Shown: in pieces, positions 7,396-28,261 of the stretch
How positions within the stretch are numbered: position 1 is the first letter of the stretch
Layout: each line of letters begins with the position of its first letter
From: a virus
Lineage: Duplodnaviria; Heunggongvirae; Uroviricota; Caudoviricetes
DNA: 28,744 bases
Strand: one strand, 5' to 3'
IMG/VR virus record: IMGVR_UViG_2923307698_000001
Span: 1 to 28,744 of that record
The notes under the pieces: model-generated
Database searches by the model: none
Seen by the model: only the letters and a program-made list of their open reading frames with translations
What the model was told of the DNA's origin: nothing
Translations under genes and position numbers: made by a program

Positions 7396-7566
7396 ATGTT
7401 TGTCAAACCTGTTAAAGGGCGGTCAGTGCCTGACCCTGCCCGCGGCGACCTTTTGCCCGCCGAAGGGCGAAATGTTGACGAGAACAACTACTGGCTGCGC
7501 CGTGAAGCAGCGGGTGATATCCGGCGCGTGAATAAAAAGGTGAACACCGATGACGATAAGCTTTAA
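7396..7566 (+). CDS. Small conserved protein preceding the sheath (DUF2635-like)
   Basis: 56-aa ORF missing from the ORF track: MFVKPVKGRSVPDPARGDLLPAEGRNVDENNYWLRREAAGDIRRVNKKVNTDDDKL. RBS gagga precedes it; its 3' end overlaps the sheath start. Confidence 0.45.
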   Translation: MFVKPVKGRSVPDPARGDLLPAEGRNVDENNYWLRREAAGDIRRVNKKVNTDDDKL

Positions 7567-9671: not shown

Positions 9672-9812
9672 CGGCTGAATACCTCACTGATCGCTTCTTT
9701 GACTGCGCCAGCTACTGGCGCATTAATCCCTTCGAATTGCTGAATATGCCGATCAGTGAAATTCCCTTGCTGGTCAGTCAGGCAAACAGGATAGAGCAGG
9801 AGAAACGCACAC

Positions 9813-11645: not shown

Positions 11646-11736
11646 CCAGGATTCCCCTCACAGGTATTGCTGGTTGTAAGTCATAAATAGAGTGATAGAA
11701 TTAATGCACATTTAGAAAAATGTTAATAGGCGAAAA
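11646..11736 (+). promoter_or_regulatory. Putative sigma70 promoter and operator-like palindrome for the moron
   Basis: -35-like TTGTAA (11674..11679), 16-bp spacer, extended -10 TGaTAGAAT (11693..11701). Perfect palindrome ACATTT-N4-AAATGT at 11707..11722, just before ATG 11737. Confidence 0.3.
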
Positions 11737-12268
11737 ATGAAAGGCTATATCACAGCAAGTGTAATTCTTGGAGCAGCGGCTATTTTTTTCATCTCTCATA
11801 ATCTCTGGCAACATCTCCTTTAAAGATGAACATATTATTCAGTTATCTGGAGGAGCCATAAAACTTGGTGATGTTTATAAAGAAAATAAATTGATAAGTG
11901 CAAAGATTATTTTTCCAGATAATCAGGGTGAACAGATTCTTGTTGTCGACGGCAATCCTGAAAACTTTAAGGAGGATTTTCAGGAGAAATTAAATAAAGT
12001 AATAAAAACTTTAAATGCGTCAAAGAAAAAAGATGAAGAGAAAGTTAGCCTGGATAATTTAAGTGTTATTGAAGAGTCTAAACTAGAGCTCGTTTCTGCG
12101 GTGCGTTACTCTGCTCAGTATGTTCCTATGTTTACTCTGACGCTGGACAAAAAAGAAATTACCATGCCTAAAAATACGGTAATATTTCCATTTGCCAGCG
12201 ATGAAACAGCTAAGTATTTAAATGAACAACAGCAAAAGTATAAAGATTCGTTGTTTCTGACTCGCTAA
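11737..12268 (+). CDS. AT-rich moron: hypothetical protein with hydrophobic N-terminus, frame split at a T7 tract
   Basis: ATG 11737 encodes MKGYITASVILGAAAIFF..., which stops after 28 codons. The +1 frame continues from the T7 run (11783..11789) as ...SSLIISGNISFKDEH... to 12268 (the ORF-track entry 11768..12268 uses a TTG start). AT-rich relative to flanking tail genes. Own terminator follows. Confidence 0.5.
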
Positions 12269-12287
12269 TTAATAAAATTCATTACAA

Positions 12288-12318
12288 GGCCACCTTCTAA
12301 TAGGTGGCTTTTTTATTT
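12288..12318 (+). terminator. Rho-independent terminator after the moron
   Basis: Stem gccacct / aggtggc with loop tctaat, followed by ttttttatttt. Confidence 0.6.
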
Positions 12319-12329
12319 TCGGAGTGTAT

Positions 12330-13658
12330 ATGACGTGGAAAGACAGGCTTCAGGATGCGTCATTTCGAGGTGTGCCGTTTAAGGTTGAAGAAGAAAGTGC
12401 GGGAACCGGTCGCCGTGTGGAAACACATGAATACCCGAACCGCGACAAACCCTATACCGAAGACCTGGGGAAAATCACTTTTCGCCCGTCCATCACGGCT
12501 TATGTGGTGGGAGATGACTGCTTTGACCAGCGCGATCGCCTGATTGACGCGCTGAATAAACCCGGTCCCGGCACGCTTGTCCATCCGACATACGGTGAGC
12601 TGAAAGTCTGTGTTGACGGGGAAGTTCGGGTCAGCACATCGAAAAGTGAAGGGCGTATTGTCCGCTTTGACCTGAAGTTTGTCGAAGCAGGAGAACTCTC
12701 TTACCCCACATCAGGTGCGGCGACGGCGCAGACGCTGATGTCATCCTGTTCTGCATTGGATAACTGCATCAGTGACAGCTTCAGCGGTTTCAGTATCGAT
12801 GGCGTGGCGGATTTTGTGCAGAACGACGTTATCGGTAATGCCAGCACAATGCTTGGGTATGTTTCTGATGCGATGAAAGTGGTGGATTCTGCCGTATCGG
12901 ATGCTGCCAGGCTGTTGCAGGGGGATATCTCGGTACTTCTGCCGCCACCATCGTCAGGCAAAAATTTCGTTGAGCAGGTGCAGAAAATGTGGCGTACCGG
13001 GAAACGCCTTTATGGTAACGCCAGCGACCTGGTCACCATGATCAAAACGCTTTCCGGTGTCAGCCTCGGCAGCGATCTGCAACCGCGCGGCGTCTGGAAA
13101 ACGGACAGTAAAACCACCGCCACGGCGACGCAGCAGCGTAACGTGGTTGCCAGCACCCTTCGTACGACCGCAATCAGCGAAGCGGCGTATGCCGTCACCC
13201 GATTGCCTGCGCCAACAACTTCCGCGGTGATGCAGAATGCCGCAGTGGGGCAGGCAACAACAGCTGCGCAGAGCACCGGCTGGCCTTCCGTCACGCATCC
13301 GGCACTGAACAATGCACCGGCGGTGAAAAACACGGTTGATCTGCCGACGTGGGAAGAACTGACTGACATTCGCGACACACTGAATACGGCAATTGATAAG
13401 GAGTTGTCCCGTACAACCAGTGATGCGCTGTTTCTGGCGCTGCGCCGGGTGAAAGCAGATCTGAATGCGGATATCAACACGCGCCTTGAACAGTCTGCAC
13501 GGATCATTCAGCGCACACCGGATGAGGTTTTACCCGCGCTGGTGCTGGCGGCGACCTGGTTTGATAACGCGGCGCGTGACGCGGACATTATCCGGCGTAA
13601 TGCCATTACGCATCCCGGCTTTGTGCCGGTGATCCCTCTGAAGGTGCCAGTGCAATGA
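12330..13658 (+). CDS. DNA circularisation protein (Mu N/gp43-like)
   Basis: N-terminus MTWKDRLQDASFRGVPFKVEEE fits the family N-terminal motif. ATG 12330 with RBS ggag 5 nt upstream; the ORF-track start at GTG 12324 is less likely. Confidence 0.7.
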   Translation: MTWKDRLQDASFRGVPFKVEEESAGTGRRVETHEYPNRDKPYTEDLGKITFRPSITAYVVGDDCFDQRDRLIDALNKPGPGTLVHPTYGELKVCVDGEVRVSTSKSEGRIVRFDLKFVEAGELSYPTSGAATAQTLMSSCSALDNCISDSFSGFSIDGVADFVQNDVIGNASTMLGYVSDAMKVVDSAVSDAARLLQGDISVLLPPPSSGKNFVEQVQKMWRTGKRLYGNASDLVTMIKTLSGVSLGSDLQPRGVWKTDSKTTATATQQRNVVASTLRTTAISEAAYAVTRLPAPTTSAVMQNAAVGQATTAAQSTGWPSVTHPALNNAPAVKNTVDLPTWEELTDIRDTLNTAIDKELSRTTSDALFLALRRVKADLNADINTRLEQSARIIQRTPDEVLPALVLAATWFDNAARDADIIRRNAITHPGFVPVIPLKVPVQ

Positions 13659-14734
13659 ACGATAACGTCACGCTACGGGTAAATGGCCGGGAGTGGAATG
13701 GCTGGACATCGGTGCGCATCGGTGCCGGTATTGAACGGCTGGCGCGGGATTTCAGTGTGGAGATCACCCGCCAGTGGCCGGGAGATGAGGGTATCACCAC
13801 GCTTCAGCCGCGCATTAAAAACGGTTCAAAAGTGGAAGTGCTGATTGGTGATGAGCTGGTGATCACCGGCTGGGTGGAGGCGACTCCCGTTCGTTACGAT
13901 GCCCGTTCGGTCAGCACCGGTATTGCCGGACGCAGTCTGACCGCTGACCTGATTGACTGTGCAGCCGAACCGACACAGTTTAACGGACGATCGCTGGTAC
14001 AGATTGCGCAGGCGCTTACTGCGCCTTTCGGCATTGAGGTGGTGAACAGCGGTGCGCCGTCGGGTGTTATTCCTGATGTCCAGCCTGATCACGGTGAAAC
14101 GGTGATCGAGGTGATCAACAAAATACTCGGTCAGCAGCAGGCACTGGCTTACGACGATCCGCACGGCAGGCTGGTGATTGGCGGTATTGGCTCAACGCGG
14201 GCACATACCGCGCTGGTACTTGGGGAAAACATCCTTTCCTGCGATACGGAGAAGAGTATCCGGGAGCGGTTTTCAGTTTACCAGGTGGCGGGGCAGCGTG
14301 CCGGAAACGACGATGATTTCGGTGAGGCCACCACCACCGCGCTGCGGGCCCGCACAGAGGACGCATTTATTGCCCGTTACCGTCCGATGTATATCAGGCA
14401 GACAGGGCAGGCCACGGGGGCTGGCTGTATTGCGCGTGCTGACTTTGAAGCCCGGCAACGGGCGGCGCGGACGGATGAAACCACCTATGTGGTGCAGGGC
14501 TGGCGACAGGGTAACGGTACGCTGTGGCAGCCCAACCAGCGGGTGATTGTCTTTGATCCGGTCTGTGGTTTCGACAATACCGAACTGCTTGTTTCGGAAG
14601 TCACGTTTACTCAGGACCAGAACGGCACCCTGACGGAAATCCGTGTCGGCCCGCCTGATGCTTATCTGCCTGAACCCGAAGCCCCCGGCGCGCGGAAAAA
14701 GAAAAAAGCCAGAGTACAGGAGGACCCGTTCTGA
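13655..14734 (+). CDS. Baseplate hub / tail protein (Mu P/gp44-like, late control D family)
   Basis: 359 aa, coupled start, position after N. Confidence 0.7.
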   Translation: MNDNVTLRVNGREWNGWTSVRIGAGIERLARDFSVEITRQWPGDEGITTLQPRIKNGSKVEVLIGDELVITGWVEATPVRYDARSVSTGIAGRSLTADLIDCAAEPTQFNGRSLVQIAQALTAPFGIEVVNSGAPSGVIPDVQPDHGETVIEVINKILGQQQALAYDDPHGRLVIGGIGSTRAHTALVLGENILSCDTEKSIRERFSVYQVAGQRAGNDDDFGEATTTALRARTEDAFIARYRPMYIRQTGQATGAGCIARADFEARQRAARTDETTYVVQGWRQGNGTLWQPNQRVIVFDPVCGFDNTELLVSEVTFTQDQNGTLTEIRVGPPDAYLPEPEAPGARKKKKARVQEDPF

Positions 14735-15282
14735 TGAGGACGATTGAAGCCATGCAGCGACAACTCCTCGGCCTGATTGGGCGGGCCGTGGTGAAAAGCA
14801 TCAGTGCCGCCACGAAATGTCAGACCGTGGATGTGTCCCTGATTGCCGGTGAACCCAAAGCCGGGGTTGAACATCTTGAACCCTACGGTTTTACCGCAAG
14901 GGCAAACAGCGGTGCGGAAGCGGTTGTGTTGTTTCCGGATGGCGACCGTTCTCATGCGGTGGTTGTTACGGTGTCGGACCGTCGCTACCGCCTGAAAGGG
15001 CTGCAGACGGGCGAGGTGGCTGTCTATGACGATCAGGGGCAGTCCGTGACGCTGACCCGGGAGGGGATCGTGGTGGACGGTGCAGGTAAAACGATCACGT
15101 TTCGCAATGCACCTGAAGCACGTTTTGAAATGGACCTGGAAGTGACCGGACAGGTGAAAGACCTGTGCGACTCCGGCGGCACCACCATGTCAGCGATGCG
15201 GCTTGCCTATAACGGGCATCGTCACAGAGAGAACGGTCAGGGCAGTAACACCGACAAACCGGATAAAGCGATGGAGGCATGA
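14734..15282 (+). CDS. Baseplate assembly protein V-like (Mu gp45-like spike)
   Basis: 182 aa with C-terminal DSGGTTMS motif reminiscent of V-family proteins. Coupled start. Confidence 0.6.
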   Translation: MRTIEAMQRQLLGLIGRAVVKSISAATKCQTVDVSLIAGEPKAGVEHLEPYGFTARANSGAEAVVLFPDGDRSHAVVVTVSDRRYRLKGLQTGEVAVYDDQGQSVTLTREGIVVDGAGKTITFRNAPEARFEMDLEVTGQVKDLCDSGGTTMSAMRLAYNGHRHRENGQGSNTDKPDKAMEA

Positions 15283-15707
15283 TGGAACTGTGGCTGACGG
15301 TGAACGGTAAACGCACCTGCGCCAGCGCACCGCTGGATCCGCTGACCCGCTCCGTGGTGATTTCCCTGTTTACCTGGCGGCGGGCGGAGCCTGATGACAA
15401 CGCCGACGTCCCGATGGGATGGTGGGGGGATACCTGGCCTGCGGTACAGAATGACCGTTACGGCTCCCGACTGTGGCTGCTTCAGCGCAGCAAACTGACC
15501 AATCAGCTGGTGCAGACGGTAAGGGGGTATATCCGCGAATGCCTGCAATGGATGATTGATGATTGCGTGGTGTCCCGTATTGATCTGGATATCCGCCGCA
15601 CCGGGATTAATGAACTGGGTAACAGTATCACTCTCTGGCGTCGTGACGGACCGGTAATGATTTCTTTTGATGATCTGTGGAGTGCGATAACGCATGGCGG
15701 ACAGTGA
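15279..15707 (+). CDS. Baseplate wedge protein (Mu gp46 / gp25-like)
   Basis: 142 aa between the V-like and J-like genes. Confidence 0.55.
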   Translation: MMELWLTVNGKRTCASAPLDPLTRSVVISLFTWRRAEPDDNADVPMGWWGDTWPAVQNDRYGSRLWLLQRSKLTNQLVQTVRGYIRECLQWMIDDCVVSRIDLDIRRTGINELGNSITLWRRDGPVMISFDDLWSAITHGGQ

Positions 15708-16752
15708 ATTTCAGCGCCCGACGCTGGCAGAAAATATCAGTATGCTCCGTAACGATTTATTCGCCAGGCTGGACGTCAGCGACACGCTCCGGCGCATGGA
15801 TGAAGACGTGCGGGCAAAGGTGTATGCGGCGGCGCTGCATACGGTTTACGGTTACATCGATTATCTGGCAATGAACATGCTGCCTGACCTGTGCGATGAG
15901 TCCTGGCTGGCGCGACATGCTGCGATGAAACGGTGTCCGCGCAAGGGGGCCACGGCTGCCAGCGGGTATATGCGCTGGGAAGGTGTCAGCGATGGCCTGA
16001 AGGTGACCGCCGGGAGTGTTATTCAGCGCGATGACCTGGTTCAGTACACGGCAACTGCCGATGCAACCAGCTCCGGTGGTGTCCTGCGCGTGCCGATCGC
16101 CTGCTCAAGTTCAGGCGCGGTCGGTAACGCTGACGACGGTACGTCATTAATCCTGGTCACGCCGGTGAATGGTCTGCCGTCTTCCGGTGTGGCTGACACC
16201 CTGACAGGCGGATTTGATACTGAAGATCTGGAAACGTGGCGCGCCCGCATCATTGAGCGGTATTACTGGACGCCGCAGGGCGGGGCTGACGTGGACTATG
16301 TCGTCTGGGCTAAAGAAGTGCCCGGCATTACCCGCGCATGGACATACCGTCACTGGATGGGAACGGGAACTGTCGGTGTGATGATTGCCAGCAGTGACCT
16401 GATTAATCCCATTCCGGAAGAATCAACGGAAACGGCGGCAAGACAACACATTGAGCCACTGGCCCCGGTGGCAGGCTCTGATTTGTATGTATTCAGGCCG
16501 GTGGCGCATAAAGTGGATTTTCATATCCGCGTGACGCCGGACACACCGGAAATACGGGCTGCCATCACCGCCGAGTTGCGTTCGTTCCTGCTGCGTGATG
16601 GTTATCCGCAGGGAGAACTGAAGGTGTCGCGTATCAGTGAGGCGATTTCCGGTGCGAACGGGGAATACAGCCATCAGTTGCTTGCACCGGCAGACAATAT
16701 CTCCATTGCAAAAAATGAACTGGCGGTACTGGGGACGATTTCATGGACGTGA
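15694..16752 (+). CDS. Baseplate J-like protein (Mu gp47-like)
   Basis: 352 aa in conserved position before the gp48-like and tail fibre genes. Confidence 0.7.
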
Positions 16753-17327
16753 CAAACGATGATTACATCCGTCTGTTGTCGGCACTGTTGCCCCCCGGTC
16801 CGGCGTGGTCAGCCAGCGATCCGGCGATTGCCGGTGCGGCACCGTCATTAACCCGCGTTCATCAGCGTGCGGATGCCCTGATGCGGGAGCTGGATCCGCG
16901 CACCACCACCGAACTGATAAATCGCTGGGAGCGTCTGTGCGGCCTGCCGGATGAATGTATTCCCGCAGGGACACAGACCCTTCGCCAGCGTCAGCAACGG
17001 CTGGATGCGAAGGTTAACCTGGCGGGCGGCATCAACGAGGATTTTTATCTTGCACAGCTTGCTGCCCTGGGCAGACCAGATGCCACCATCGCGCGATACG
17101 ACAAAAGCACGTTCACCTGCTCATCGGCCTGTACTGACGCTGTGAACGCGCCTGAATGGCGGTATTACTGGCAGGTCAACATGCCAGCCGCCACCAACAC
17201 CACCTGGATGACATGTGGCGATCCCTGTGATTCCGCACTGCGTATCTGGGGCGACACAGTTGTCGAATGTGTGCTTAACAAACTCTGCCCGTCGCATACC
17301 TACGTAATTTTTAAATATCCGGAGTAA
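16743..17327 (+). CDS. Tail protein (Mu gp48 / YmfQ-like, DUF2313-type)
   Basis: 194 aa, Cys-rich C-terminus, directly upstream of the tail fibre. Confidence 0.6.
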
Positions 17328-17330
17328 TCC

Positions 17331-17993
17331 ATGCATCGTATAGACACGAAAACCGCGCAGAAGGATAAGTTCGGCGCGGGTAAGAACGGTTTTACCCGTG
17401 GTAACCCCCAGACCGGCACGCCTGCCACCGATCTGGATGATGACTACTTTGACATGTTGCAGGAGGAGCTTTGCAGCGTTGTGGAGGCGTCCGGTGCCAG
17501 CCTGGAGAAGGGGCGGCACGACCAGCTACTTACCGCGCTTCGCGCGCTGCTGTTAAGCCGCAAGAATCCGTTTGGCGATATCAAATCGGATGGCACGGTG
17601 AAAACGGCTCTCGAAAACCTTGGTTTGGGAGAAGCGGCAAAACGGGACGTGGGAACAGGGGAAAATCAGATACCGGATATGGTTTCATTTAGTGGTGTGA
17701 GGGATTTTTATGGAAAACAACTTTTGCCAGGAGGGTTGATACTCCAGTGGCTGACGATTCCATCAAGTGCAGCAGTCAAAGCTGTAACACTGGATAATGG
17801 TAATTATCAGCTGTCAGGCTATAAATGGCCCCAGTCATTTGGTGTCCTGTTTGCTGTGTTTGCCACAAAAGTTTCTGGCTCGACTAACGAAGCATACGCA
17901 ATCTCAGTTAATCGTCACTCTACCGATGTAATTGTCACCTGGAATGCCCGTAAGGCTGATGATGTCCATATTTTAGGAATTGGGAAATTATGA
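17331..17993 (+). CDS. Tail fibre protein: constant N-terminal part plus currently expressed variable C-terminus
   Basis: 220 aa. The constant region ends at ...[22 protein letters not shown], which reappears on the opposite strand at 18784..19191 ([22 protein letters not shown]). Confidence 0.65.
17620..17644 (+). repeat. Left inverted repeat / recombination site of the invertible segment
   Basis: ttggtttgggagaagcggcaaaacg is the exact reverse complement of 19127..19151. The hix/gix-like core AAACC-TT-GGTTT is at 17615..17626. Confidence 0.75.
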
Positions 17994-18409
17994 AAATGAA
18001 ATGGTCCCCATCTGTTCAGGGATTTTTCTCTGAAAACAACAGCGATATTCCCGATGATGCTTTCGATATTGAAGATGCTCTTTATTATGAACTTATGAAT
18101 GGTCAGAGTACGGGGAAAATTATTATCAATAGCCCGGATAACTACCCTGTACTTACTGAATATCCAGCGAAGACACATGAACAGGAAATAGCTGAAGCGG
18201 AGGGAATGAAAAATATACTTATTGAACAGGCCAACGATTATATGAACAGTAAACAATGGCCTGGTAAAGCGGCTATTGGCCGGCTGAAAGGTGAGGAACT
18301 GGCACAATATAATTTGTGGCTGGATTACCTGGACGCACTGGAACTGGTCGATACTTCCGGTGCGCCAGATATTGAATGGCCTACACCTCCGGTAACTCAG
18401 GCCAGCTAA
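17990..18409 (+). CDS. Tail fibre assembly protein (expressed orientation)
   Basis: 139 aa, coupled to the tail-fibre stop. Confidence 0.65.
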
Positions 18410-18417
18410 TCTCAGGA

Positions 18418-18441
18418 GCCGTCGAAGTGTCGACGGCTTTT
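18418..18441. terminator. Hairpin terminator between the convergent tail-fibre assembly genes
   Basis: gccgtcga agtg tcgacggc is a perfect 8-bp stem, followed by tttt. Confidence 0.5.
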
Positions 18442-18775
18442 ACTTCTTTTTGTAGTCCATCCAGGCAGATAGTTTTTCTTTATCTGTACTGCTGATATCA
18501 CCAAGCATTAATTCCACCCGCCTGTCAGCTGTGACATTATCGGCATGAGCAAGTAACTGCATTCGCTGATTTTCAGCACGTGCGACATAATCAATCGCCG
18601 GAGATTTCAGTACCGGTAAACCATTTTCATCTGACGTGATTAATTTCCCCCCTTCCTGCTGTCCGGCAATTAATTCATTGTATAAGTCTGTACTTATCTC
18701 AACAATGTCAGCAGGCATGTCGCTGTTTATACCATCAAAGAAAAAACCATTAGTCGATTTTGAGAAATAAATCAT
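18440..18775 (-). CDS. Alternative tail fibre assembly protein (silent orientation)
   Basis: Begins MIYFSKSTNGFFFDGINSD, a typical tail-fibre-assembly N-terminus. Lies inside the invertible segment on the opposite strand. Confidence 0.6.
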   Translation of the reverse strand: MIYFSKSTNGFFFDGINSDMPADIVEISTDLYNELIAGQQEGGKLITSDENGLPVLKSPAIDYVARAENQRMQLLAHADNVTADRRVELMLGDISSTDKEKLSAWMDYKKK

Positions 18776-18783
18776 AGATATAC

Positions 18784-19126
18784 CTATACACCGATTGCTA
18801 CCCAAAAACAGGACCTTTCATATTTGACAATTTCTCCCTGAGATATACCGCCAACAATTATATAGAACTGTGATTTGCTGATATCAGAACAGTTCGCTAT
18901 GCCCATTGCAGATATACCAGCCACCGACGTTGTATGTGGCACAGCCAACAGCGCAAGTGAACGATTTGGGAATGTTACCGGGTAAGTCACCGTATAGTTT
19001 GATGCTCCACTGACAATACCCCACTGAATAATCAGACCTGAAGGGAGTTTTTGAAAACCCGTTGATGAAAGTGAACTGGCAAACGCCGCCATATCCGGAA
19101 TTTGGTTTTGCTCGTTACCCACATTT
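18784..19126 (-). CDS. Alternative tail-fibre C-terminal cassette (promoterless, fused to the constant region after inversion)
   Basis: Translation continues in frame from the right inverted repeat ([20 protein letters not shown]...). It is similar to, but distinct from, the expressed C-terminus. Confidence 0.6.
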
Positions 19127-19151
19127 CGTTTTGCCGCTTCTCCCAAACCAA
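19127..19151 (-). repeat. Right inverted repeat / recombination site of the invertible segment
   Basis: Reverse complement is identical to 17620..17644. Outer half-site AAACC AA CGTTT at 19145..19156. Confidence 0.75.
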
Positions 19152-19218
19152 CGTTTATGAAAATGCAGAGATAACGGCTAACTGGCATCATCTCCGGTTT
19201 TTATTCAGGGGGATGATC

Positions 19219-19785
19219 ATGCTTATTGGCTATGTACGCGTGTCAACAAATGACCAGAACACCGATTTGCAACGTAATGCACTGAACTGCGCGGGATGTG
19301 AGCGGATTTTTGAGGATAAAATCAGTGGCACTAAGTCCGACAGACCGGGGCTGAAAAAGCTGCTCAGGACACTATCGGCAGGAGACACGCTGGTTGTCTG
19401 GAAGCTGGACAGGTTGGGGCGCAGTATGCGGCATCTTGTTACGCTGATAGAGGAGTTGCGCCAGCGTGGTGTGAATTTCCGAAGCCTGACTGACAGTATT
19501 GATACCAGTACCCCAATGGGCCGTTTCTTTTTTCATGTCATGGGTGCCCTGGCTGAAATGGAACGCGAACTGATAGTTGAACGTACCAGGGCAGGGCTGG
19601 CTGCAGCTCGTGCCAAAGGCAGAGTAGGTGGACGCCGTCCTAAGTTGACCACCGAACAGTGGGCACAGATTGGGCGTTTACTCGAGGCCGGAGAATCAAG
19701 ACAGCGTATTGCACTGATTTTTGATGTGGGTGTTTCCACAATTTATAGAAAATTTCCGGCAAATAAGAGTAATGAATCCCCCTGA
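19219..19785 (+). CDS. pin: Serine recombinase DNA invertase (Pin/Gin/Hin family)
   Basis: MLIGYVRVSTNDQNTDLQRNAL...DTLVVWKLDRLGRSM...GRFFFHVMGALAEMERELIVERT...RRPKLT...STIYRKFPA carries the catalytic Ser and C-terminal HTH seen in Hin/Gin/Pin invertases. RBS aggggga precedes ATG 19219. Confidence 0.85.
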   Translation: MLIGYVRVSTNDQNTDLQRNALNCAGCERIFEDKISGTKSDRPGLKKLLRTLSAGDTLVVWKLDRLGRSMRHLVTLIEELRQRGVNFRSLTDSIDTSTPMGRFFFHVMGALAEMERELIVERTRAGLAAARAKGRVGGRRPKLTTEQWAQIGRLLEAGESRQRIALIFDVGVSTIYRKFPANKSNESP

Positions 19786-19833
19786 ATCAGCATTATTTTG
19801 ATTATCCCTGCAAGTAGACAAATACCGTCATTT

Positions 19834-19851
19834 TGTGTGAATAACGGTACA
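19834..19851 (+). promoter_or_regulatory. TGT-N12-ACA dyad (Ogr/Delta-type late-promoter activator site) upstream of FI
   Basis: TGTgtgaataacggtACA lies ~75 bp upstream of the FI ATG (19928), which has RBS aggagg. Ogr-like activator is encoded at 26834..27052. Confidence 0.4.
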
Positions 19852-19927
19852 ACTGCGCTTAGCTGTTTGTCAGGCACAATCACTTCAACATAGGGCGAAG
19901 CCTAATCCAATCAGGAGGTTCGCCACT

Positions 19928-21100
19928 ATGGCTCAGGATTACCACCACGGGGTGCGCGTTGTTGAAGTCAACGAAGGCACCCGATCCATTACCACGGTGA
20001 GCACCGCCATCGTGGGCATGGTCTGCACGGGCGATGATGCCGATGCAAAAATGTTTCCTCTTAACAAACCTGTGCTGATCACTGATGTGCTGACTGCCAG
20101 CGGTAAAGCGGGTGAGTCCGGCACGCTGGCCCGTTCGCTGGATGCCATCGCTGACCAGGCAAAACCCGTGACCGTTGTTGTGCGTGTGCCGCAGGGTGAA
20201 ACGGAAGAAGAAACCACGACCAATATCATCGGCGCAGTGACTGCTGAAGGTAAAAAAACAGGCATGAAAGCTCTGTTATCTGCCCAGTCACAGCTCGGCG
20301 TTAAACCGCGCATTCTCGGCGTGCCAGGTCACGATAACAAAGCCGTTGCGACTGAGTTGCTGAGCGTGGCGCAAAGCCTGCGTGGGTTTGCTTACCTGTC
20401 AGCGTATGGCTGCAAGACGGTACAGGAGGCGATCACTTACCGTGAAAACTTCAGCCAGCGCGAAGGAATGCTGATCTGGCCCGACTTTACTGGCTGGGAC
20501 ACGGTGCTGAATGCCGAAGCAACGGCATATGCCACCGCCCGTGCACTTGGTCTGCGTGCCAAAATTGATGAGCAGACCGGGTGGCACAAAAGCCTGTCCA
20601 ACGTGGGCGTGAACGGTGTCACCGGAATTTCTGCAGATGTGTTCTGGGATCTGCAGGACCCGGCAACCGATGCAGGTCTGCTGAACCAGAACGACGTCAC
20701 CACGCTTGTGCGTAAAGACGGTTTCCGCTTCTGGGGTTCCCGCTGTCTGAGCGATGATCCGCTTTTTGCCTTCGAAAACTACACCCGCACGGCGCAGGTG
20801 CTGACGGACACAATGGCAGAAGCACACATGTGGGCGGTGGATAAACCGCTTAACCCGTCGCTGGCCCGCGACATTATCGAAGGTATCCGCGCCAAAATAC
20901 GCAGCCTGGTCAGTCAGGGCTATCTCATTGGTGGTGATTGCTGGCTGGATGAGTCGGTGAACGACAAAGACACGCTGAAAGCCGGAAAACTCACCATCGA
21001 CTATGACTACACGCCAGTGCCGCCACTTGAAAATCTGATGCTGCGCCAGCGCATCACCGATCAGTACCTGGTGAATTTCGCCAGCCAGGTCAGCGCGTAA
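19928..21100 (+). CDS. FI: P2-type tail sheath protein FI
   Basis: 390 aa. N-terminus [40 protein letters not shown] and C-terminus ...[27 protein letters not shown] match P2 FI as I recall it. Confidence 0.85.
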
Positions 21101-21109
21101 GGGGACAAC

Positions 21110-21625
21110 ATGGCTTTACCACGCAAATTAAAACATCTGAACCTGTTTAACGACGGGAACAACTGGCAGGGGATCGTTGAGTCGCTGACGCTGCCGAAAT
21201 TCACCCGCAAATATGAGAAGTATCGCGGCGGCGGAATGCCGGGTGCAGTGGATGTGGATCTGGGGCTTGATGACAGTGCGCTGGACACAGAATTTTCCAT
21301 TGGTGGTACTGAACTGCTGCTGTTTAAGCAGATGGGCAAAGCCACGGTAGATGGCATTCAGCTGCGCTTTACCGGCTCTATCCAGCGTGACGATACCGGG
21401 GAAGTGCAGGCCGTGGAGCTTGTGGTGCGTGGACGTCACAAAGAAGTGGATTCCGGCGAGTGGAAGACGGGCGAAAGCAACACCACCAAAGTGACCAGTA
21501 CCAACAGCTACGCGAAGCTGACCATCAATGGTGAGGTGCTCTATGAAGTGGACCTTATCAACATGGTGGAAATTGTGGACGGTGTGGACCTGATGGAAGC
21601 GCACCGCAACGCCCTCGGCCTCTGA
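21110..21625 (+). CDS. FII: P2-type tail tube protein FII
   Basis: 171 aa, MALPRKLKHLNLFNDGNNWQG..., directly after FI. Confidence 0.8.
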   Translation: MALPRKLKHLNLFNDGNNWQGIVESLTLPKFTRKYEKYRGGGMPGAVDVDLGLDDSALDTEFSIGGTELLLFKQMGKATVDGIQLRFTGSIQRDDTGEVQAVELVVRGRHKEVDSGEWKTGESNTTKVTSTNSYAKLTINGEVLYEVDLINMVEIVDGVDLMEAHRNALGL

Positions 21626-21636
21626 TGTATCTGAAC

Positions 21637-21654
21637 GGCGCGGGATACCGCGCC
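21637..21654 (+). other. GC stem-loop between FII and E
   Basis: ggcgcgg gata ccgcgcc is a perfect 7-bp stem with no T-tract. Likely an mRNA processing or attenuation element. Confidence 0.3.
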
Positions 21655-21679
21655 AGAACCCAATTTACAGGACAGCAAA

Positions 21680-21982
21680 ATGAGCGATAAGCAGACTGAA
21701 AAGACTATTCAACTGGATACCCCCATCAAGCGCGGTAAAACAGAAATCACCGAAATTGTGCTGCGTAAACCGCAGTCCGGTGCGCTGCGCGGTACACGCC
21801 TGCAGGCCATTATGGATATGGATGTGAACGCGATGATGACCGTGATCCCCCGTATCTCCAGTCCGGCACTGACTGCACAGGAAATTGCAGAGATGGACCC
21901 GGCAGATCTCACTGCCATGTCGGTTGAGGTTGTCACTTTTTTGTTGAAGAAGTCGGTGCTTGCCGGTTTACCGACAGCCTGA
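21680..21982 (+). CDS. E: P2-type tail assembly chaperone E
   Basis: 100 aa between tube and tape measure. Contains the slippery site T TTT TTG. Confidence 0.7.
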   Translation: MSDKQTEKTIQLDTPIKRGKTEITEIVLRKPQSGALRGTRLQAIMDMDVNAMMTVIPRISSPALTAQEIAEMDPADLTAMSVEVVTFLLKKSVLAGLPTA

Positions 21983-22116
21983 CGGTTGACGATCTGGTGG
22001 CTGATATCGCCACCATCTTTCACTGGCCGCCATCCGTTACTGACGTTATGCCGCTGACCGAAGTGCTGGAATGGCGGTATAAAGCGATTCAGAGAAGCGG
22101 GGCCAACGATGAGTGA
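21680..22116 (+). CDS. E+E' frameshift product (-1 shift at 21937..21943)
   Basis: Zero-frame codons ACT TTT TTG give the heptamer T TTT TTG at 21937..21943. The -1 frame reads VEEVGACRFTDSL...RYKAIQRSGANDE to TGA at 22114..22116, overlapping the T start at 22109. Confidence 0.6.
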
Positions 22117-25100
22117 TAACAACCTGCGGCTGCAGGTCATTCTTAATGCGGTTGACAAACTCACCCGCCCATTCCGTGTTGCACAGGCCAGTTCGAAAGA
22201 GCTGGCTGGCGCAATTCAGAATACCCGAAACAGCCTCAAAGAACTGAATAAGCAGGCTGGCAGAATTGATGAATTTCGCAAGACGCGCTCGCAACTAGCC
22301 ATAACAGCCAACAACCTGAACGCAGCCCGCGAAGAGGCGGCAAAACTCGCCACACAATTTGCTGCCACTAACAGGCCAACCGCCGCGCAGGCAAAGTTAT
22401 TCAGTCAGGCCAAAACACGAGTACAGGAACTTCAGCAGACCTATAACGGCTTGTTGGGGGCGGTCCAGAGACAACGTCAGGCACTTAAAGAATCAGGGAT
22501 TGATACCAGACAACTCAGTAGTGCCCAGCGAGAACTTAAGAAAAATGCTGAAGAAACAAGGCAGGCAATGGAGGGCCAGCAAAAAGCACTTAAACGTCTG
22601 GGTGAACAACAGGCACGGATGAACGCTGCCAGAGAACAATACTCAAGACGGCTTGAAGTGCGCGATCGCATCGCAGGAGCCGGAGCCACTACCACGGCTG
22701 CAGGGCTGGCAATGGGTGCGCCAGTGATGGCAGCAGTAAAAAGCTATACCAGCATGGAAGATGCCATGAAAGGTGTGGCAAAGCAGGTCAATGGTCTGCG
22801 TGATGATAATGGCAACCGCACTGCGCGTTTTTACGAAATGCAGGATGCCATCAAGGCTGCCAGCGAACAGTTGCCGATGGAAAACGGTGCTGTGGACTTT
22901 GCCGCACTGGTTGAAGGTGGTGCGCGCATGAACGTCGCAAATCCTGACGACAGCTGGGAAGACCAGAAACGTGACCTGCTGGCCTTCGCCAGCACGGCAG
23001 CAAAGGCGGCAACAGCCTTTGAGCTGCCAGCGGATGAACTGTCAGAAAGTCTGGGGAAAATCGCCCAGCTCTACAAAATCCCTACCCGCAATATTGAACA
23101 GCTCGGTGATGCGCTGAACTATCTGGATGATAACGCCATGTCGAAAGGGTCAGACATCATTGATGTCATGCAACGCCTGGGCGGTGTGGCAGATCGTCTG
23201 GATTATCGTAAAGCGGCGGCGCTGGGTTCCACCTTCCTGACACTGGGCGCTGCGCCGGAGGTTGCTGCCAGTGCAGCAAACGCGATGGTGCGTGAATTGT
23301 CCATTGCCACCATGCAAAGTAAGAGTTTCTTTGAAGGGATGAATCTGCTGAAACTCAATCCTGAAGTGATTGAAAAGCAGATGACGAAGGATGCGATGGG
23401 AACTATCCAGCGTGTGCTGGAGAAGGTGAACGCACTGCCGCAGGACAAGCGTCTGTCTGCCATGACCATGTTGTTTGGTAAAGAGTTTGGTGATGATGCA
23501 GCGAAACTGGCAAACAACCTTCCGGAACTGCAGCGCCAGCTAAAACTGACAGCGGGCAATGATGCGCTCGGTTCCATGCAGAAAGAATCCGACATCAACA
23601 AAGACTCACTTTCCGCTCAGTGGTTGCTGGTCAAAACCGGAGCGCAGAACACCTTCAGCAGCCTGGGCGAAACGCTGCGCCAGCCGCTGATGGATATTCT
23701 GTACACGGTAAAAAGCATCACGGGGGCGTTGCGCCGCTGGGTGGAAGCTAACCCGGAACTGACAGGCACACTGATGAAAGTAGCGGCTGTTGTGGCTGCG
23801 GTTACCGTAGGCCTCGGCACCTTAGCGGTGGCGCTGGCTGCAGTGCTGGGGCCGCTGGCAGTCATCCGTCTGGGATTCTCTGTGCTGGGTATCAAAACGT
23901 TACCTTCCGTTACGGCAGCAGTAACACGAACCAGCAGCGCGTTGTCCTGGTTAGCTGGCGCTCCACTGGCACTGCTGCGACGCGGGCTTGCTTCATCGGG
24001 CAACGCAGCGGGTTTACTTACTGCGCCGTTGTCGTCTTTGCGCCGCACCGCATCACTGACGGGGAATGTCCTGAAAACTGTAGCAGGTGTGCCGGTTGCA
24101 CTGTTGCGGTCTGGATTATCCGGTTTACGTGCGGTTGCTGTGATGTTTATGAATCCACTGGCAGCACTACGCGGTGGACTGGCTGCCGCAGGCGCGGTGC
24201 TGCGTGTGCTGGCATCCGGTCCGCTGGCGATGCTGCGCGTTGCCCTGTATGCCGTATCTGGTCTGTTAGGTGCTCTGCTCAGTCCGATAGGTCTTGTGGT
24301 TACTGCACTGGCGGGCGTGGCGCTGGTTGTCTGGAAATACTGGCAACCCATCACCGCATTTCTCGGTGGCGTGGTGGAAGGATTCAAAGCGGCGGCAGGT
24401 CCCATCAGTGCTGCATTCGAACCGCTTAAGCCCGTGTTCCAGTGGATTGGCGACAAAGTACAGGCGTTGTGGGGCTGGTTTACTGATCTGCTGACGCCTG
24501 TTAAGTCGACCTCTGCCGAACTGCAGAGCGCAGCGGCAATGGGGCGACGATTCGGGGAGGCACTGGCGGAAGGGCTGAATATGGTCATGCATCCGTTGGA
24601 CTCCCTGAAATCCGGCGTTTCCTGGTTGCTGGAGAAACTCGGTATTGTCAGTAAAGAGGCTGCAAAGGCGAAACTGCCGGAAAGCGTGACGCGTCAGCAA
24701 CCTGCGACGGTGAATGCAGACGGTAAAGTGATGATGCCATCGGGTGGTTTTCCGTCATGGGGATATGGCTTTGCGGGGATGTATGACAGCGGCGGCTATA
24801 TCCCGCGCGGGCAGTTCGGCATTGTCGGTGAAAACGGGCCTGAAATTGTCAACGGTCCGGCAAACGTGACCAGTCGGAGAAATACAGCTGCACTGGCTGC
24901 CGTTGTTGCCGGAATGATGGGCGTTGCTGCCGCGCCTGCAGAGCTTCCGCCGTTACATCCTTTGGCACTTCCCGCGAAAGGCGGCGAAGCGATGGTGAGT
25001 CGTGCAGCCACTGTGCCGCCCGCTCAACGGATTGAGGCACCGACGCAGATCATCATCCAGACGCAGCCAGGACAAAGTGCGCAGGATATTGCGCGGGAGG

Positions 25101-25186
25101 TGGCACGCCAGCTTGATGAACGTGAACGCAGGCTGAAGGCAAAAGCCAGGAGTAACTACAGCGATCAGGGGGGATACGACGCATGA
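22109..25186 (+). CDS. T: P2-type tail tape measure protein T
   Basis: 1025 aa. Long helical N-terminal half, Ala/Leu/Gly-rich hydrophobic repeats in the middle. Lies between E/E' and U. Confidence 0.8.
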   Translation: MSDNNLRLQVILNAVDKLTRPFRVAQASSKELAGAIQNTRNSLKELNKQAGRIDEFRKTRSQLAITANNLNAAREEAAKLATQFAATNRPTAAQAKLFSQAKTRVQELQQTYNGLLGAVQRQRQALKESGIDTRQLSSAQRELKKNAEETRQAMEGQQKALKRLGEQQARMNAAREQYSRRLEVRDRIAGAGATTTAAGLAMGAPVMAAVKSYTSMEDAMKGVAKQVNGLRDDNGNRTARFYEMQDAIKAASEQLPMENGAVDFAALVEGGARMNVANPDDSWEDQKRDLLAFASTAAKAATAFELPADELSESLGKIAQLYKIPTRNIEQLGDALNYLDDNAMSKGSDIIDVMQRLGGVADRLDYRKAAALGSTFLTLGAAPEVAASAANAMVRELSIATMQSKSFFEGMNLLKLNPEVIEKQMTKDAMGTIQRVLEKVNALPQDKRLSAMTMLFGKEFGDDAAKLANNLPELQRQLKLTAGNDALGSMQKESDINKDSLSAQWLLVKTGAQNTFSSLGETLRQPLMDILYTVKSITGALRRWVEANPELTGTLMKVAAVVAAVTVGLGTLAVALAAVLGPLAVIRLGFSVLGIKTLPSVTAAVTRTSSALSWLAGAPLALLRRGLASSGNAAGLLTAPLSSLRRTASLTGNVLKTVAGVPVALLRSGLSGLRAVAVMFMNPLAALRGGLAAAGAVLRVLASGPLAMLRVALYAVSGLLGALLSPIGLVVTALAGVALVVWKYWQPITAFLGGVVEGFKAAAGPISAAFEPLKPVFQWIGDKVQALWGWFTDLLTPVKSTSAELQSAAAMGRRFGEALAEGLNMVMHPLDSLKSGVSWLLEKLGIVSKEAAKAKLPESVTRQQPATVNADGKVMMPSGGFPSWGYGFAGMYDSGGYIPRGQFGIVGENGPEIVNGPANVTSRRNTAALAAVVAGMMGVAAAPAELPPLHPLALPAKGGEAMVSRAATVPPAQRIEAPTQIIIQTQPGQSAQDIAREVARQLDERERRLKAKARSNYSDQGGYDA

Positions 25187-25668
25187 TGATGGTGCTGGGA
25201 TTGTACGTGTTTATGCTGCGCACTGTGCCGTATCAGGAACTGCAGTATCAACGCAGCTGGCGACATGCGGCAAACAGCCGGGTCAACCGACGTCCGTCCA
25301 CGCAGTTTCTGGGACCGGACAACGACATGCTGACGCTTTCTGGTGTTCTTATGCCGGAGATAACAGGCGGCAGGCTGTCGTTGCTGGTACTGGAGCAGAT
25401 GGCAGAGCAGGGGAAAGCATGGCCCCTGATTGAAGGCAGCGGCACGATTTACGGCATGTATGTGATTGAGGGACTGAATCAGACTAAAACGGAGTTTTTC
25501 CGCGACGGTATGCCGCGCCGGATTGAGTTCACCCTGTCGCTCAAACGGGTGGATGAATCCCTGTCCGATATGTTCGGTGATCTCAGTGCGCAACTGAATA
25601 ATCTGCAGGACACGGCAACGTCTGCCTTAAGCGATATCAGTAAAACGGTGGGAGGGCTGCTGTCGTGA
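25183..25668 (+). CDS. U: P2-type tail protein U
   Basis: 161 aa, coupled start (ATGATGATG), between T and D. Confidence 0.7.
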   Translation: MMMVLGLYVFMLRTVPYQELQYQRSWRHAANSRVNRRPSTQFLGPDNDMLTLSGVLMPEITGGRLSLLVLEQMAEQGKAWPLIEGSGTIYGMYVIEGLNQTKTEFFRDGMPRRIEFTLSLKRVDESLSDMFGDLSAQLNNLQDTATSALSDISKTVGGLLS

Positions 25669-26765
25669 ATTTCAGCTCTGAACTGCTTAACAAAGGCAAC
25701 AAAACTCCCGCATTCAGCATCAGTATTGAGGGCAGGGATATCACCACTGTGCTGGATAACCGCCTGATGAGTTTGACGCTGACGGATAATCGGGGCTTTG
25801 AAGCAGACCAGCTTGATCTGGAGCTGGACGACGCCGACGGAAAAATCGTGCTGCCGCGCCGTGGTGCGGTTATTACGCTGGCGCTGGGCTGGAAGGGGCA
25901 GCCGCTTTTCCCGAAAGGGGCATTCACGGTGGACGAGATTGAACACACTGGCGCACCGGACCGCCTGACTATCCGGGCGCGAAGTGCTGATTTTCGTGAA
26001 ACGCTGAATACCCGCCGTGAAAAGTCGTGGCACAAGACCACCGTTGGGGAAGTGGTGAAGGAAATAGCTGCGCGGCACAAACTGAAGATGGCATTGGGTA
26101 AAGACCTGTCAGATAAACCCGTGGAACATATAGACCAGACCAATGAGAGTGACGGCAGTTTTCTGATGCGACTGGCGCGCCAGTACGGTGCTATTGCGTC
26201 GGTGAAAAATGGCAATCTGTTATTCATCCGGCAGGGACAGGGCAAAAGCGCCAGCGGTAAACCACTGCCGGTGATCACTATCACGCGTAAGGACGGCGAC
26301 AGTCACCGCTTTACCCTGGCAGATCGCGGAGCCTATACGGGCGTCATTGCCAGCTGGTTGCATACCCGCGAACCCGCGAAGAAAGAAAGCACCACGGTGA
26401 AGCGTAAGCGCAGAACTAAGAAGCAGAAGAAAGAGCCGGAAGCGAAGCAGGGCGATTACCTGGTGGGGACGGATGAAAACGTGCTGGTACTTAATCGCAC
26501 TTATGCCAACCGGAGCAACGCCGAACGAGCGGCGAAAATGCAGTGGGAACGCCTGCAACGCGGTGTTGCGTCATTCTCGCTACAACTGGCGGAAGGTCGG
26601 GCAGATCTCTACACGGAAATGCCTGTGAAGGTCAGTGGCTTTAAACAGCCAATAGATGATGCGGAATGGACCATTACGACTCTGACACATACCGTCAGCC
26701 CGGATAACGGTTTTACGACCAGTATTGAACTTGAAGTGAAAATTGGTGATCTTGAAATGGAGTAA
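25665..26765 (+). CDS. D: P2-type tail protein D (late control D family)
   Basis: 366 aa. GTG start overlaps the U stop (GTGA), RBS ggtgggaggg. Lys-rich internal segment. Last gene before ogr. Confidence 0.75.
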   Translation: MNFSSELLNKGNKTPAFSISIEGRDITTVLDNRLMSLTLTDNRGFEADQLDLELDDADGKIVLPRRGAVITLALGWKGQPLFPKGAFTVDEIEHTGAPDRLTIRARSADFRETLNTRREKSWHKTTVGEVVKEIAARHKLKMALGKDLSDKPVEHIDQTNESDGSFLMRLARQYGAIASVKNGNLLFIRQGQGKSASGKPLPVITITRKDGDSHRFTLADRGAYTGVIASWLHTREPAKKESTTVKRKRRTKKQKKEPEAKQGDYLVGTDENVLVLNRTYANRSNAERAAKMQWERLQRGVASFSLQLAEGRADLYTEMPVKVSGFKQPIDDAEWTITTLTHTVSPDNGFTTSIELEVKIGDLEME

Positions 26766-26833
26766 ATGGTTCTCAATATTGATATTTTGTGTATCATTGC
26801 AATGATTCTGATAGCAAAGGTAGGGATCTGGAT

Positions 26834-27052
26834 ATGATGAATTGTCCAAAGTGTGGTCATGCGGCGCACACAAGGAGCAGTTTTCAAGTAACAGAAAGCA
26901 CCAAAGAGCGTTACTGCCAGTGCCAAAATATTAACTGCGGGAGCACTTTTGTTACCCATGAAACAGTGGTCCGGTTTATTGTGACACCTGCAGTGATTGC
27001 CACAGCCCCTCCACATCCATTGCCAGGTGGTCAGGGCCATATGAATTTTTAA
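26834..27052 (+). CDS. ogr: Ogr/Delta-family zinc-finger late transcription activator
   Basis: MMNCPKCGHAAHTRSS...KERYCQCQNINCGSTF...: C-X2-C-X22-C-X4-C spacing and ~72 aa length match P2 Ogr. Position at the prophage right end next to att, as in P2. Confidence 0.8.
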   Translation: MMNCPKCGHAAHTRSSFQVTESTKERYCQCQNINCGSTFVTHETVVRFIVTPAVIATAPPHPLPGGQGHMNF

Positions 27053-27056
27053 GAAA

Positions 27057-27083
27057 GAGAACCTGCTACGGCAGGTTTTTATT
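27057..27083. terminator. Bidirectional hairpin terminator between ogr and the convergent orphan gene
   Basis: Stem aacctgc / gcaggtt with loop tacg, flanked by an A-rich run upstream and tttttatt downstream. Confidence 0.5.
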
Positions 27084-27561
27084 CATCTGGGATCTCACCC
27101 GTTTCAAGAAAATGTATAAAGCCAGGCTCATCTATGATGATAGTGCCTTTCATCCTGGCTGCCGATACTTTTGATGGGCCTGCATTGTAACCGCAACAGA
27201 GCATCTGAAGGTTTTGGGTTACAGATGTTCTTACCGTTAATCCTTGTTCATTCGCCTTATCAACCAACCTTTCTTTATCTGCTTTCTTAAATCCGGTGAA
27301 ACACACATCGAATGTATTTTTTTTCGGACCTGACTGCTTAGTGAGATGTGAGTAGTTTTCGGGGAGGAATGACGCGCATTCCTGAATGGCTTGTTCTTGT
27401 GAATCGTATTGTTTAAGAATGCGGTCTTTTCGGAAGGTTTTTATTCGATCGGTGTTCTTACAAATGCCCTGTATGTGATTTTCGCTATAACTGATGCTCT
27501 GTATTGAGTGAACACCGATACGACCATTTGCATTGATGTAAACAAAGTGAAGTTCTTCCAT
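27079..27561 (-). CDS. Orphan cargo gene: WYL-like N-terminal motif plus C-terminal BRCT-like domain
   Basis: 160 aa. ATG at 27561..27559 with RBS aagagg 7 nt upstream. N-terminus LHFVYINANGRIGVHSIQ...RIKTFRKDRIL resembles the WYL-domain R-x-F-R-x-D-R-I signature. C-terminus FDVCFTGFKKADKERLVDKANEQGLTVRTSVTQNLQMLCCGYNAGPSKVSAARMKGTIIIDEPGFIHFL resembles a LigA-type BRCT. Region is AT-rich relative to the P2-like genes. Confidence 0.55.
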   Translation of the reverse strand: MEELHFVYINANGRIGVHSIQSISYSENHIQGICKNTDRIKTFRKDRILKQYDSQEQAIQECASFLPENYSHLTKQSGPKKNTFDVCFTGFKKADKERLVDKANEQGLTVRTSVTQNLQMLCCGYNAGPSKVSAARMKGTIIIDEPGFIHFLETGEIPDE

Positions 27562-27587
27562 GTCAAACCTCTTTGCATGATTTCAAG

Positions 27588-27626
27588 ATGGCGACAGGCA
27601 AGATGGACGCAAAAGTCTGTCGCCAT
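27588..27626. promoter_or_regulatory. 10-bp perfect inverted repeat upstream of the orphan gene (possible operator or hairpin)
   Basis: atggcgacag (27588..27597) and ctgtcgccat (27617..27626) with a 19-bp spacer. Direct repeat caagatgg at 27584 and 27599. Confidence 0.3.
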
Positions 27627-27652
27627 TTTGCCGCCACTACCTAAGAAAAAGG

Positions 27653-27680
27653 GGCTACGCTTTCACGTAACCCCTTGATT
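27653..27680 (-). terminator. ssrA intrinsic terminator
   Basis: On the minus strand: GGGGUUACG ugaaag CGUAGCCCC followed by UUUUUCUU, immediately 3' of the tmRNA CCA end. Confidence 0.6.
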
Positions 27681-27707
27681 TATTTGGTGGAGCTGGCGGG
27701 AGTTGAA
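27655..27707. repeat. Proximal att-site direct repeat (ssrA 3' end plus terminator), partner of 1..52
   Basis: Identical to window 1..32 over 27655..27686, with a degenerate match beyond. Confidence 0.7.
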
Positions 27708-28047
27708 CCCGCGTCCGAAATTCCTACATCCTCGGTACTACATGCTTAGTCAGTCTTTACATTCGCTTGCCAGCTGCGGACGGACACGCCACTAACAAAC
27801 TAGCCTGATTAAGTTTTAACGCTTCAACCCCAGGCAGGGCTTCCACGCGATCTCTTTTGGGTTTGACCTCTCTTGATCCCCGTCCTAAGAGCGGAGGCTA
27901 GGGAGAGAGGGCTCTAAGCAGGTTATTAAGCTGCTAAAGCGTAGTTTTCGTCGTTTGCGACTATTTTTTGCGGCTTTTTACGAGGCCAACCGCCCCTCGG
28001 CATGCACCTTGGGTTTCGCAAATCCCGTCGAATCCAGAATCAGCCCC
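27685..28047 (-). ncRNA. ssrA: tmRNA (transfer-messenger RNA, SsrA)
   Basis: Reverse complement reads GGGGCTGATTCTGGATTCGACGGG...CCCGCCAGCTCCACCA, 363 nt. Tag reading frame GCA AAC GAC GAA AAC TAC GCT TTA GCA GCT TAA (ANDENYALAA) at 27926..27958. Matches the enterobacterial tmRNA as I recall it. Confidence 0.97.
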
Positions 28048-28261
28048 AATGTGTAAAGGTAAGTATACCAGATTTATGAGCGCCATGACCAGCCTCAATG
28101 GCGTTATCGTTAAAGATTTAGCACCCATGTAGCCTGATTTTTATTCGATTAAGCAATGGGATGGCAACATTTGTGTCGGATGTGATAGCCAATAAGATGT
28201 TGATTCGCGCCGCCGGAGAGGGAGGCGCGGTGAGGAACTGGTCAATAATTGGAGTGCAGGT

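Follow-up and report, generated by a model that had tools for sequence, protein, structure and literature searches.

A predicted Ogr-activated late promoter of the P2 PF/186 pJ type in a composite prophage remnant at ssrA

The 142-nt gap between a DNA invertase gene and the tail sheath gene FI in a P2-like prophage segment holds a TGT-N12-ACA inverted repeat, TGTgtgaataacggtACA (TGTGTGAATAACGGTACA), which lies at 19834-19851, begins 49 nt past the invertase stop and matches the pattern perfectly. Judged from its sequence context, this dyad is very probably the Ogr-activated late promoter site of a P2/186-like phage, equivalent to P2 PF and 186 pJ. The assignment is based on an architecture that matches the mapped P2 PF and 186 pJ promoters and on a fixed position in relatives, as well as on paralogous dyads at the late promoters of Escherichia phage Cartapus and on an intact Ogr. 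Throughout, the window is the whole stretch of DNA that was analysed, 28,744 nt (IMG/VR record IMGVR_UViG_2923307698_000001). The original prediction had placed a dyad at 19834..19851, in the gap 19786-19927 before FI, and all of these coordinates hold. The element itself is of a textbook kind and already known, being an orthologue of mapped promoters whose sequence is public in Cartapus. Its setting is mildly unusual, in that an intact late operon and its activator gene are orphaned in a two-phage fusion remnant at ssrA.

The gap and its immediate surroundings contain the following elements, in window coordinates:

19219 to 19785, plus strand: Gin/Pin-type DNA invertase gene, the upstream neighbour, outside the promoter (Pfam Resolvase and HTH_7; LF82 and Cartapus annotation)
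19786 to 19927, plus strand: intergenic region with the predicted PF-type late promoter, from the invertase stop at 19785 to the FI ATG at 19928
19834 to 19851, no strand assigned: TGT-N12-ACA dyad, predicted Ogr binding site, extended form tTTGTGtgaataacggtACAAc
19863 to 19868, plus strand: -35 position, CTGTTT (2/6 match), 17 nt upstream of the -10-like hexamer, with TG invariant in relatives
19886 to 19891, plus strand: -10-like hexamer CAACAT; the relatives' columns +52 to +57 read xA(A/C)CAT, and A.CATA is invariant across representatives
19899 to 19901, plus strand: predicted transcription start, its offset carried over from the P2 PF and 186 pJ starts
19913 to 19918, plus strand: Shine-Dalgarno AGGAGG of FI, read from the sequence

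The site joins a dyad, a -10-like hexamer with a poor -35, a place at the head of a late operon and a fixed position in relatives. The two mapped promoters supply the registers. In the P2 record, the activator site of PF is placed at 17555-17583, the start at 17626-17628 and FI at 17652; within PF (TTGTGctgtcgattagCCAAC), GAAAAT lies at +53 to +58 and the start at +65 to +67, counted from the T of TGT. In the 186 record, the B-protein site for pJ comes first, followed by the initiation point and then by sheath gene J; within pJ (TTGTgccagacatcatCCA), GACAAT lies at +52 to +57 and the start at +66. In the window site (TTGTGtgaataacggtACAAC), CAACAT occupies +52 to +57 from the T of TGT, and with the predicted start the dyad would be centred near -57 and the leader, AGGAGG included, would be 27-29 nt long. 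The spacing had been claimed to suit an Ogr/Delta-dependent late promoter, and this is supported, both the -10 offset and the order of elements being those of mapped P2 PF and 186 pJ. The comparison with P2 PF was anchored on annotated features; a pairwise MAFFT alignment of the gap mis-registered the dyads.

Like P2 PF, the window site stands directly upstream of FI, heads an FI-FII-E-T-U-D(-ogr) operon and has a poor -35, with an activator dyad that begins TTGTG and ends CAAC and a -10-like hexamer 52-53 nt from the T of TGT; the extended dyad, TTGTG...ACAAC, resembles the P2 PF and 186 pJ sites alike. It differs from P2 PF in its right half-site (ACA, where P2 has CCA), in its upstream neighbour (the invertase gene, where P2 has fun(Z)) and in its intergenic sequence, which is unalignable outside the motifs. 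With 186 pJ it shares the offsets, a -10 at +52 to +57 implying a start at +66, and a dyad placed before the sheath gene, whereas 186 has CCA as its right half-site and the terminator t45 ahead of the site, where none is predicted in the window. A simple sigma-70 scan of the gap returned no plus-strand promoter, and a -35 this poor would be typical of an activator-dependent promoter.

Two other arrangements within the gap were considered and set aside. With CCTAAT (19901-19906) as the -10, the start would fall about 72 nt from the dyad centre and the leader would be about 15 nt long; the hexamer that is conserved is instead the one at +52 to +57. A shorter dyad, TGT-N5-ACA at 19868-19878, is altered in relatives (GGCGCAA, GGACACA) and falls in the spacer of the predicted promoter.

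Delta, the other activator named in the spacing claim, is an Ogr-like protein in tandem duplicate. The inverted repeats to which Ogr binds are centred at about -55, and its action depends on the alpha subunit of RNA polymerase (PMC3152322); both the TGT-N12-ACA consensus common to P2's four late promoters and the CX2CX22CX4C motif have been described (PMC3931495). P4 Psid and PLL, and other Delta-, Pag- or NucC-dependent promoters, share TGT-N12-ACA centred near -55 and belong with the same activator family (PMC3931495, PMC3152322), but the genes downstream of them differ from those in the window.

The significance of the dyad rests on its position and its conservation, and the pattern count alone gives it no support. 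TGT-N12-ACA occurs five times in the window against 7.75 +/- 2.7 expected, with no enrichment, and eight times in Cartapus against 8.8 expected. At a chance rate of about 2.7e-4 per position, a gap of 142 nt holds a match about 3% of the time, and the chance of one at a given +/-4-nt position is about 0.2%. The original prediction had proposed a scan for further dyads, and four more were indeed found (at 13958, 16956, 21144 and 23139), but all four lie within coding ORFs, which leaves 19834 as the sole intergenic match.

Conservation was assessed in 82 loci, comprising 80 from IMG/VR (FI protein at least 90% identical), Cartapus and the LF82 prophage. Every one of them (82/82) carries TGT-N12-ACA, starting 87-94 nt before the FI ATG. 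Both the 12-nt spacer and the upstream flank vary among these loci, and the upstream gene is either an invertase gene or a tail-fibre-assembly gene with a terminator. In an ungapped alignment, from the dyad, of 21 representatives less than 80% identical, TTGT (-1 to +2) and ACA (+15 to +17) are invariant, the TGT and ACA columns partly by construction, as the sequences were anchored on the pattern. Invariant at the same offsets in these representatives are also TG (+30/31) and A.CATA (+53 to +58), while the upstream flank is almost without information and the distance from dyad to ATG varies. The independent evidence is the presence of the pattern in every locus within a 12-nt range, together with its fixed, gap-free spacing to the -10 block.

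A position weight matrix built only from PF sites with a spacer unlike that of the window (independent families) finds its best match in the window in the dyad, which scores 16.5 bits in one orientation and 9.6 in the opposite one; across 100 shuffles the maxima had a mean of 10.3, and the largest, 18.5, was above the dyad's 16.5. The second-best score in the window, 14.2, belongs to TGCgtcattctcgctACA in gene D, which has PF-like flanks. As a site, this near-dyad (TGC-N12-ACA, 26567-26584) was rejected: there is no -10-like hexamer at the required offset, and the match is probably due to chance.

These data bear on two readings in which the dyad would be no promoter element. The unremarkable pattern counts in the window and in Cartapus are what a chance match without a regulatory role would produce, but such a match is effectively refuted by conservation, since the position is kept in all 82 loci despite divergent spacers and flanks; the fixed spacing to a conserved -10, the paralogous sites at V and P/O and the geometry shared with the P2 and 186 promoters likewise speak against it, and we consider it extremely improbable. 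We give equally little credence to the dyad being a recombination or accessory site of the invertase, or the terminator hairpin of the invertase gene. Its closeness to the invertase stop and a weak 5-bp stem (ACCGT...ACGGT) that spans it would fit such a role, but relatives without the invertase, in which a tail-fibre-assembly gene and a strong terminator precede the dyad, keep its spacing to the -10 and to FI, and variants among the relatives break the stem without compensation. Moreover, no terminator was detected, and the invertase has its real crossover sites elsewhere, in the inverted repeats 17615-17682 and 19089-19156. The PF-type late promoter is the reading that we carry forward.

Because the scan of the gap predicted no terminator between the invertase gene and FI, Ogr-independent read-through from the one into the other could be possible. 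The stretch 19786-19833 is without a predicted intrinsic terminator; in the relatives that lack the invertase, a strong GC hairpin and T-run lie right before the dyad.

Cartapus is a Fels-2-like P2 relative in E. coli LF82 with low-level virion release (PMC9928086). Positions 19700-20000 of the window (301 nt, with the whole gap inside) are 100% identical to Cartapus, and, as Cartapus yields virions, a module identical to that of the window works in a phage. Three of the eight Cartapus pattern matches are those of its three late-promoter gaps, in Cartapus coordinates:

3716 (3716-3733): dyad of the P/O gap, TGTGTGGTTGTCGGTACA
9817: dyad of the V gap, TGTGTCATTTACCACACA
15568: dyad of the FI gap, identical to that of the window

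The V dyad has its centre 55.5 nt from the V ATG. P2 shows the same distance, and its V transcript begins at the ATG. Among distinct sequences of relatives, 42 of 45 have a dyad 64-66 nt before V, in 37 different dyad sequences. The window holds the FI promoter dyad only, the P/O and V promoters lying outside it. In the P/O gap of Cartapus, the divergent genes P and O have a single dyad between them, and the offset rule would put the P-side start at about 3666-3669. This coincides with the annotated P start codon (3669), which would make the transcript leaderless like that of P2 V, or else the start codon is mis-annotated.

Downstream of the predicted promoter, the window retains the whole F operon and the activator gene:

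19928 to 21100, plus strand: FI, tail sheath (Pfam Phage_sheath_1, Phage_sheath_1C and Gp18_domIII_N; 68% identical to P2 FI)
21110 to 26765, plus strand: rest of the F operon, FII to D (ORFs; annotation of the near-identical LF82 and Cartapus loci)
21110 to 21625, plus strand: FII
21680 to 21982, plus strand: E, with E' (plus strand) reaching to about 22116
22109 to 25186, plus strand: T
25183 to 25668, plus strand: U
25665 to 26765, plus strand: D
26770 to 26797, plus strand: predicted sigma-70-type promoter of ogr, TTCTCA-16-TATCAT, with TATCAT conserved in almost all relatives
26834 to 27052, plus strand: ogr, zinc-finger late activator, 72 aa (Pfam Ogr_Delta PF04606)
27060 to 27077, no strand assigned: hairpin and T-run terminator for the F operon and ogr transcripts

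The ogr gene had been called intact, and its product bears this out. The 72-aa protein scores 74 bits with PF04606 (cut-off 26.3), shares 56% identity with P2 Ogr over 70 aa, and keeps CX2CX22CX4C with all four cysteines (C4, C7, C30 and C35). An ogr homologue is found in every related locus that reaches the ogr position (69/84), the other loci of the 84 either ending too early or being the SfII-like control locus. The hairpin at 27060-27077 stands where 186 has tB and where P2 has a terminator with the annotation 'for ogr transcript and F operon'. With ogr at the distal end of the operon, under its own promoter and with a terminator shared with the operon, the layout matches those of P2 and 186.

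Between ogr and ssrA lies a 160-aa ORF on the minus strand (27079-27561), a 'putative exonuclease' in the Cartapus annotation, whose sole Pfam signal is a sub-threshold match to BRCT (19.9 bits against a cut-off of 21.3). It is likely a lysogenic-conversion (moron) gene; the 160-aa ORF of Cartapus is expressed 15-fold above background in LF82 lysogens (PMC9928086).

Taken with the known mode of action of Ogr, this arrangement suggests how the module would work. An Ogr dimer or multimer would bind at TGT and ACA, the half-sites of a dyad whose centre lies about 57 nt ahead of the predicted start, and would recruit sigma-70 RNA polymerase through its alpha subunit to the weak CTGTTT -35 and CAACAT. 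The transcript would run from about 19899-19901 through FI, FII, E/E', T, U, D and ogr to 27060-27077, and Ogr would reinforce its own synthesis through the PF transcript reaching ogr. Ogr binding, the start site and activity in the host are what we infer from these comparisons.

The prophage had been described as defective, and for what the window contains this is confirmed: the P2-like part is a right arm only, fused to an SfII-like remnant that is truncated by IS3. The window divides as follows:

1 to 2476: ypjA fragment and IS3-family element, 100% identical to strain JNE132847
2477 to 17634: SfII/SfV-like prophage, head genes and Mu-type tail genes, beginning within the portal gene
17609 to 27683: Cartapus-type right arm, invertase to ogr
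27685 to 28047: ssrA (tmRNA), followed by smpB

The SfII-like part (2477-17634) contains no terminase, lysis, early or integration genes, and the window as a whole lacks the P2-type genes int, cI, apl/cox and cII, those for replication and every other early gene, as well as those for head and baseplate. The ypjA fragment and the IS3-family element, whose transposase ORFs are on the minus strand (2093-2440 and 1227-1973), border on the SfII-like prophage within its portal gene; in JNE132847, an extra IS30 and more of the SfII-like prophage are present. From 17609 to 28056 the window and the LF82 prophage differ at four places, one of them a single-base indel and all at or before 18523, and from 18524 to 28056 there is no mismatch to LF82, so that this part is base for base the Cartapus prophage. 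Cartapus (Elveevirus; LF82 prophage 4) uses the same ssrA integration site as the window arm and carries 186-type cI/apl/cII genes; it is complete at 33.4 kb, whereas the window keeps only about 10 kb of the right arm. The ssrA-smpB spacer (28057-28260) departs from LF82 at about 45 places, against none in the neighbouring 9.5 kb of prophage, which points either to a different chromosomal background or to a variable att-associated stretch.

The two phage types are joined within an invertible tail-fibre cassette that they have in common, the shared zone running from 17609 to about 19680 and the inverted repeats of the cassette (17615-17682 and 19089-19156) being its crossover sites. Cartapus homology begins at the left inverted repeat, at the crossover site ctcgAAAACCTTGGTTTGGGAGAA, and SfII-like sequence gives way to Cartapus-like sequence at some point from 17609 to about 18650. 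Strain JNE132847 carries the same SfII-like prophage close by ssrA, in the ypjA/ileY/gabD region, oriented as in the window. A deletion between the directly oriented cassettes of two neighbouring prophages would therefore give the structure of the window; such a deletion could arise by homologous recombination or be mediated by the invertase. Positions 16800-20600 were found in one piece in none of 5426 complete E. coli genomes (0/5426), and a 70-mer across the left edge of the joint is absent from the GTDB representative genomes and from IMG/VR. The fusion has arisen either through a genuine deletion between prophages lying side by side at ssrA or through mis-joining in the assembly.

A P2-family right-end remnant with a chromosomal activator gene has a counterpart in E. 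coli K-12 and B, where a cryptic P2 remnant consists of ogrK and a gene D fragment. That remnant is without the PF promoter or the F operon, whereas the window retains the whole operon and the promoter. The ogrK gene of the K-12 remnant is reportedly a functional late activator gene.

The TATCAT of the predicted ogr promoter is identical to the -10 given for 186 pB, the promoter of activator gene B, which is under direct CI repression according to the 186 record. The ogr -10 is overlapped by a perfect palindrome of 14 bp, ATCATTGCAATGAT (26793-26806). Since other lineages have different palindromes at this position, ATCATTGCAATGAT suggests a candidate lineage-specific repressor operator. A search upstream of ogr for words resembling Cartapus CI operators found two 8-mers shared with the cI-apl region and nothing more. 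While pB is CI-repressed in 186, CI operators at the ogr promoter of the window are candidates. In P2, control of Pogr is reportedly indirect, and late transcription from the phage genome is said to need replication as well, for which reason the behaviour of the module in the window is not predictable from its sequence.

Two further readings accept the promoter and concern the context in which it now stands. The fused context could have come about by mis-joining of the assembly over about 1.5 kb of near-identical repeat, with the promoter coming from a complete Cartapus-type prophage. The joint does fall inside the cassette common to both phage types (17609-19680), and its absence from the complete genomes and from the GTDB and IMG/VR collections is what a mis-join would lead one to expect, but the placement of the prophage in JNE132847 means that a simple deletion would give exactly the structure of the window, and the left flank has been rearranged by IS3 in a coherent way; we regard a mis-join as rather unlikely. 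The chances are about even, in our estimate, that the PF promoter is real and orphaned in the island, where the FI-D genes would not be inducible in the manner of a prophage and would be set only by the sigma-70 promoter of ogr or triggered in trans. Expression would then be either constitutive with positive feedback or repressed by CI made elsewhere, or Ogr or Delta could be supplied by an incoming P2-like phage or P4-like satellite. An orphaned promoter agrees with the extent of Cartapus-like sequence (17609-27683 only, everything to the left being SfII-like or IS3), with the conserved TTCTCA-16-TATCAT at ogr and the direct CI repression of the homologous 186 pB, and with the lineage-dependent palindromes over the ogr -10. 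Against it, a second Cartapus-type prophage or a repressor may exist elsewhere in the genome, and the operator-like match to the Cartapus cI-apl region is limited to the two 8-mers.

In either context, the dyad retains its reading as a PF-type promoter, and the original proposal that the F operon may still be inducible is a reasonable hypothesis: the cis elements and genes of the module are all identical to those of an active phage, although the window offers no P2-type repressor or early gene from which an induction signal could come. Should the left arm have taken the cognate repressor with it, ogr and the F operon could be constitutive with positive feedback; if a repressor is present elsewhere in the genome, the module would be inducible. 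Otherwise, it might be switched on in trans by Ogr or Delta of incoming P2-like phages or P4-like satellites. More speculatively, and with only a slim chance of being right in our view, a deletion between the shared cassettes of two neighbouring prophages at the ssrA hot spot would have freed a self-contained Ogr-PF positive-feedback module, made up of the promoter, the operon for tail sheath, tube and tape measure, and the activator, from all P2-type immunity control, leaving it constitutive or acting as a 'listening post'. A listening post would fire on Ogr or Delta from a P2-like phage or P4-like satellite and might hinder or help the incomer.

For this phage group, TGT/ACA combined with an xAxCAT hexamer at a constant offset of 52 nt reliably marks PF/pJ-type promoters, and the present assignments can be used to annotate the promoter, its predicted start and the ogr promoter in Cartapus/Fels-2-type prophages. 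With its late operon and activator intact and parted from the normal repressor, the remnant offers a natural case for asking what controls ogr.
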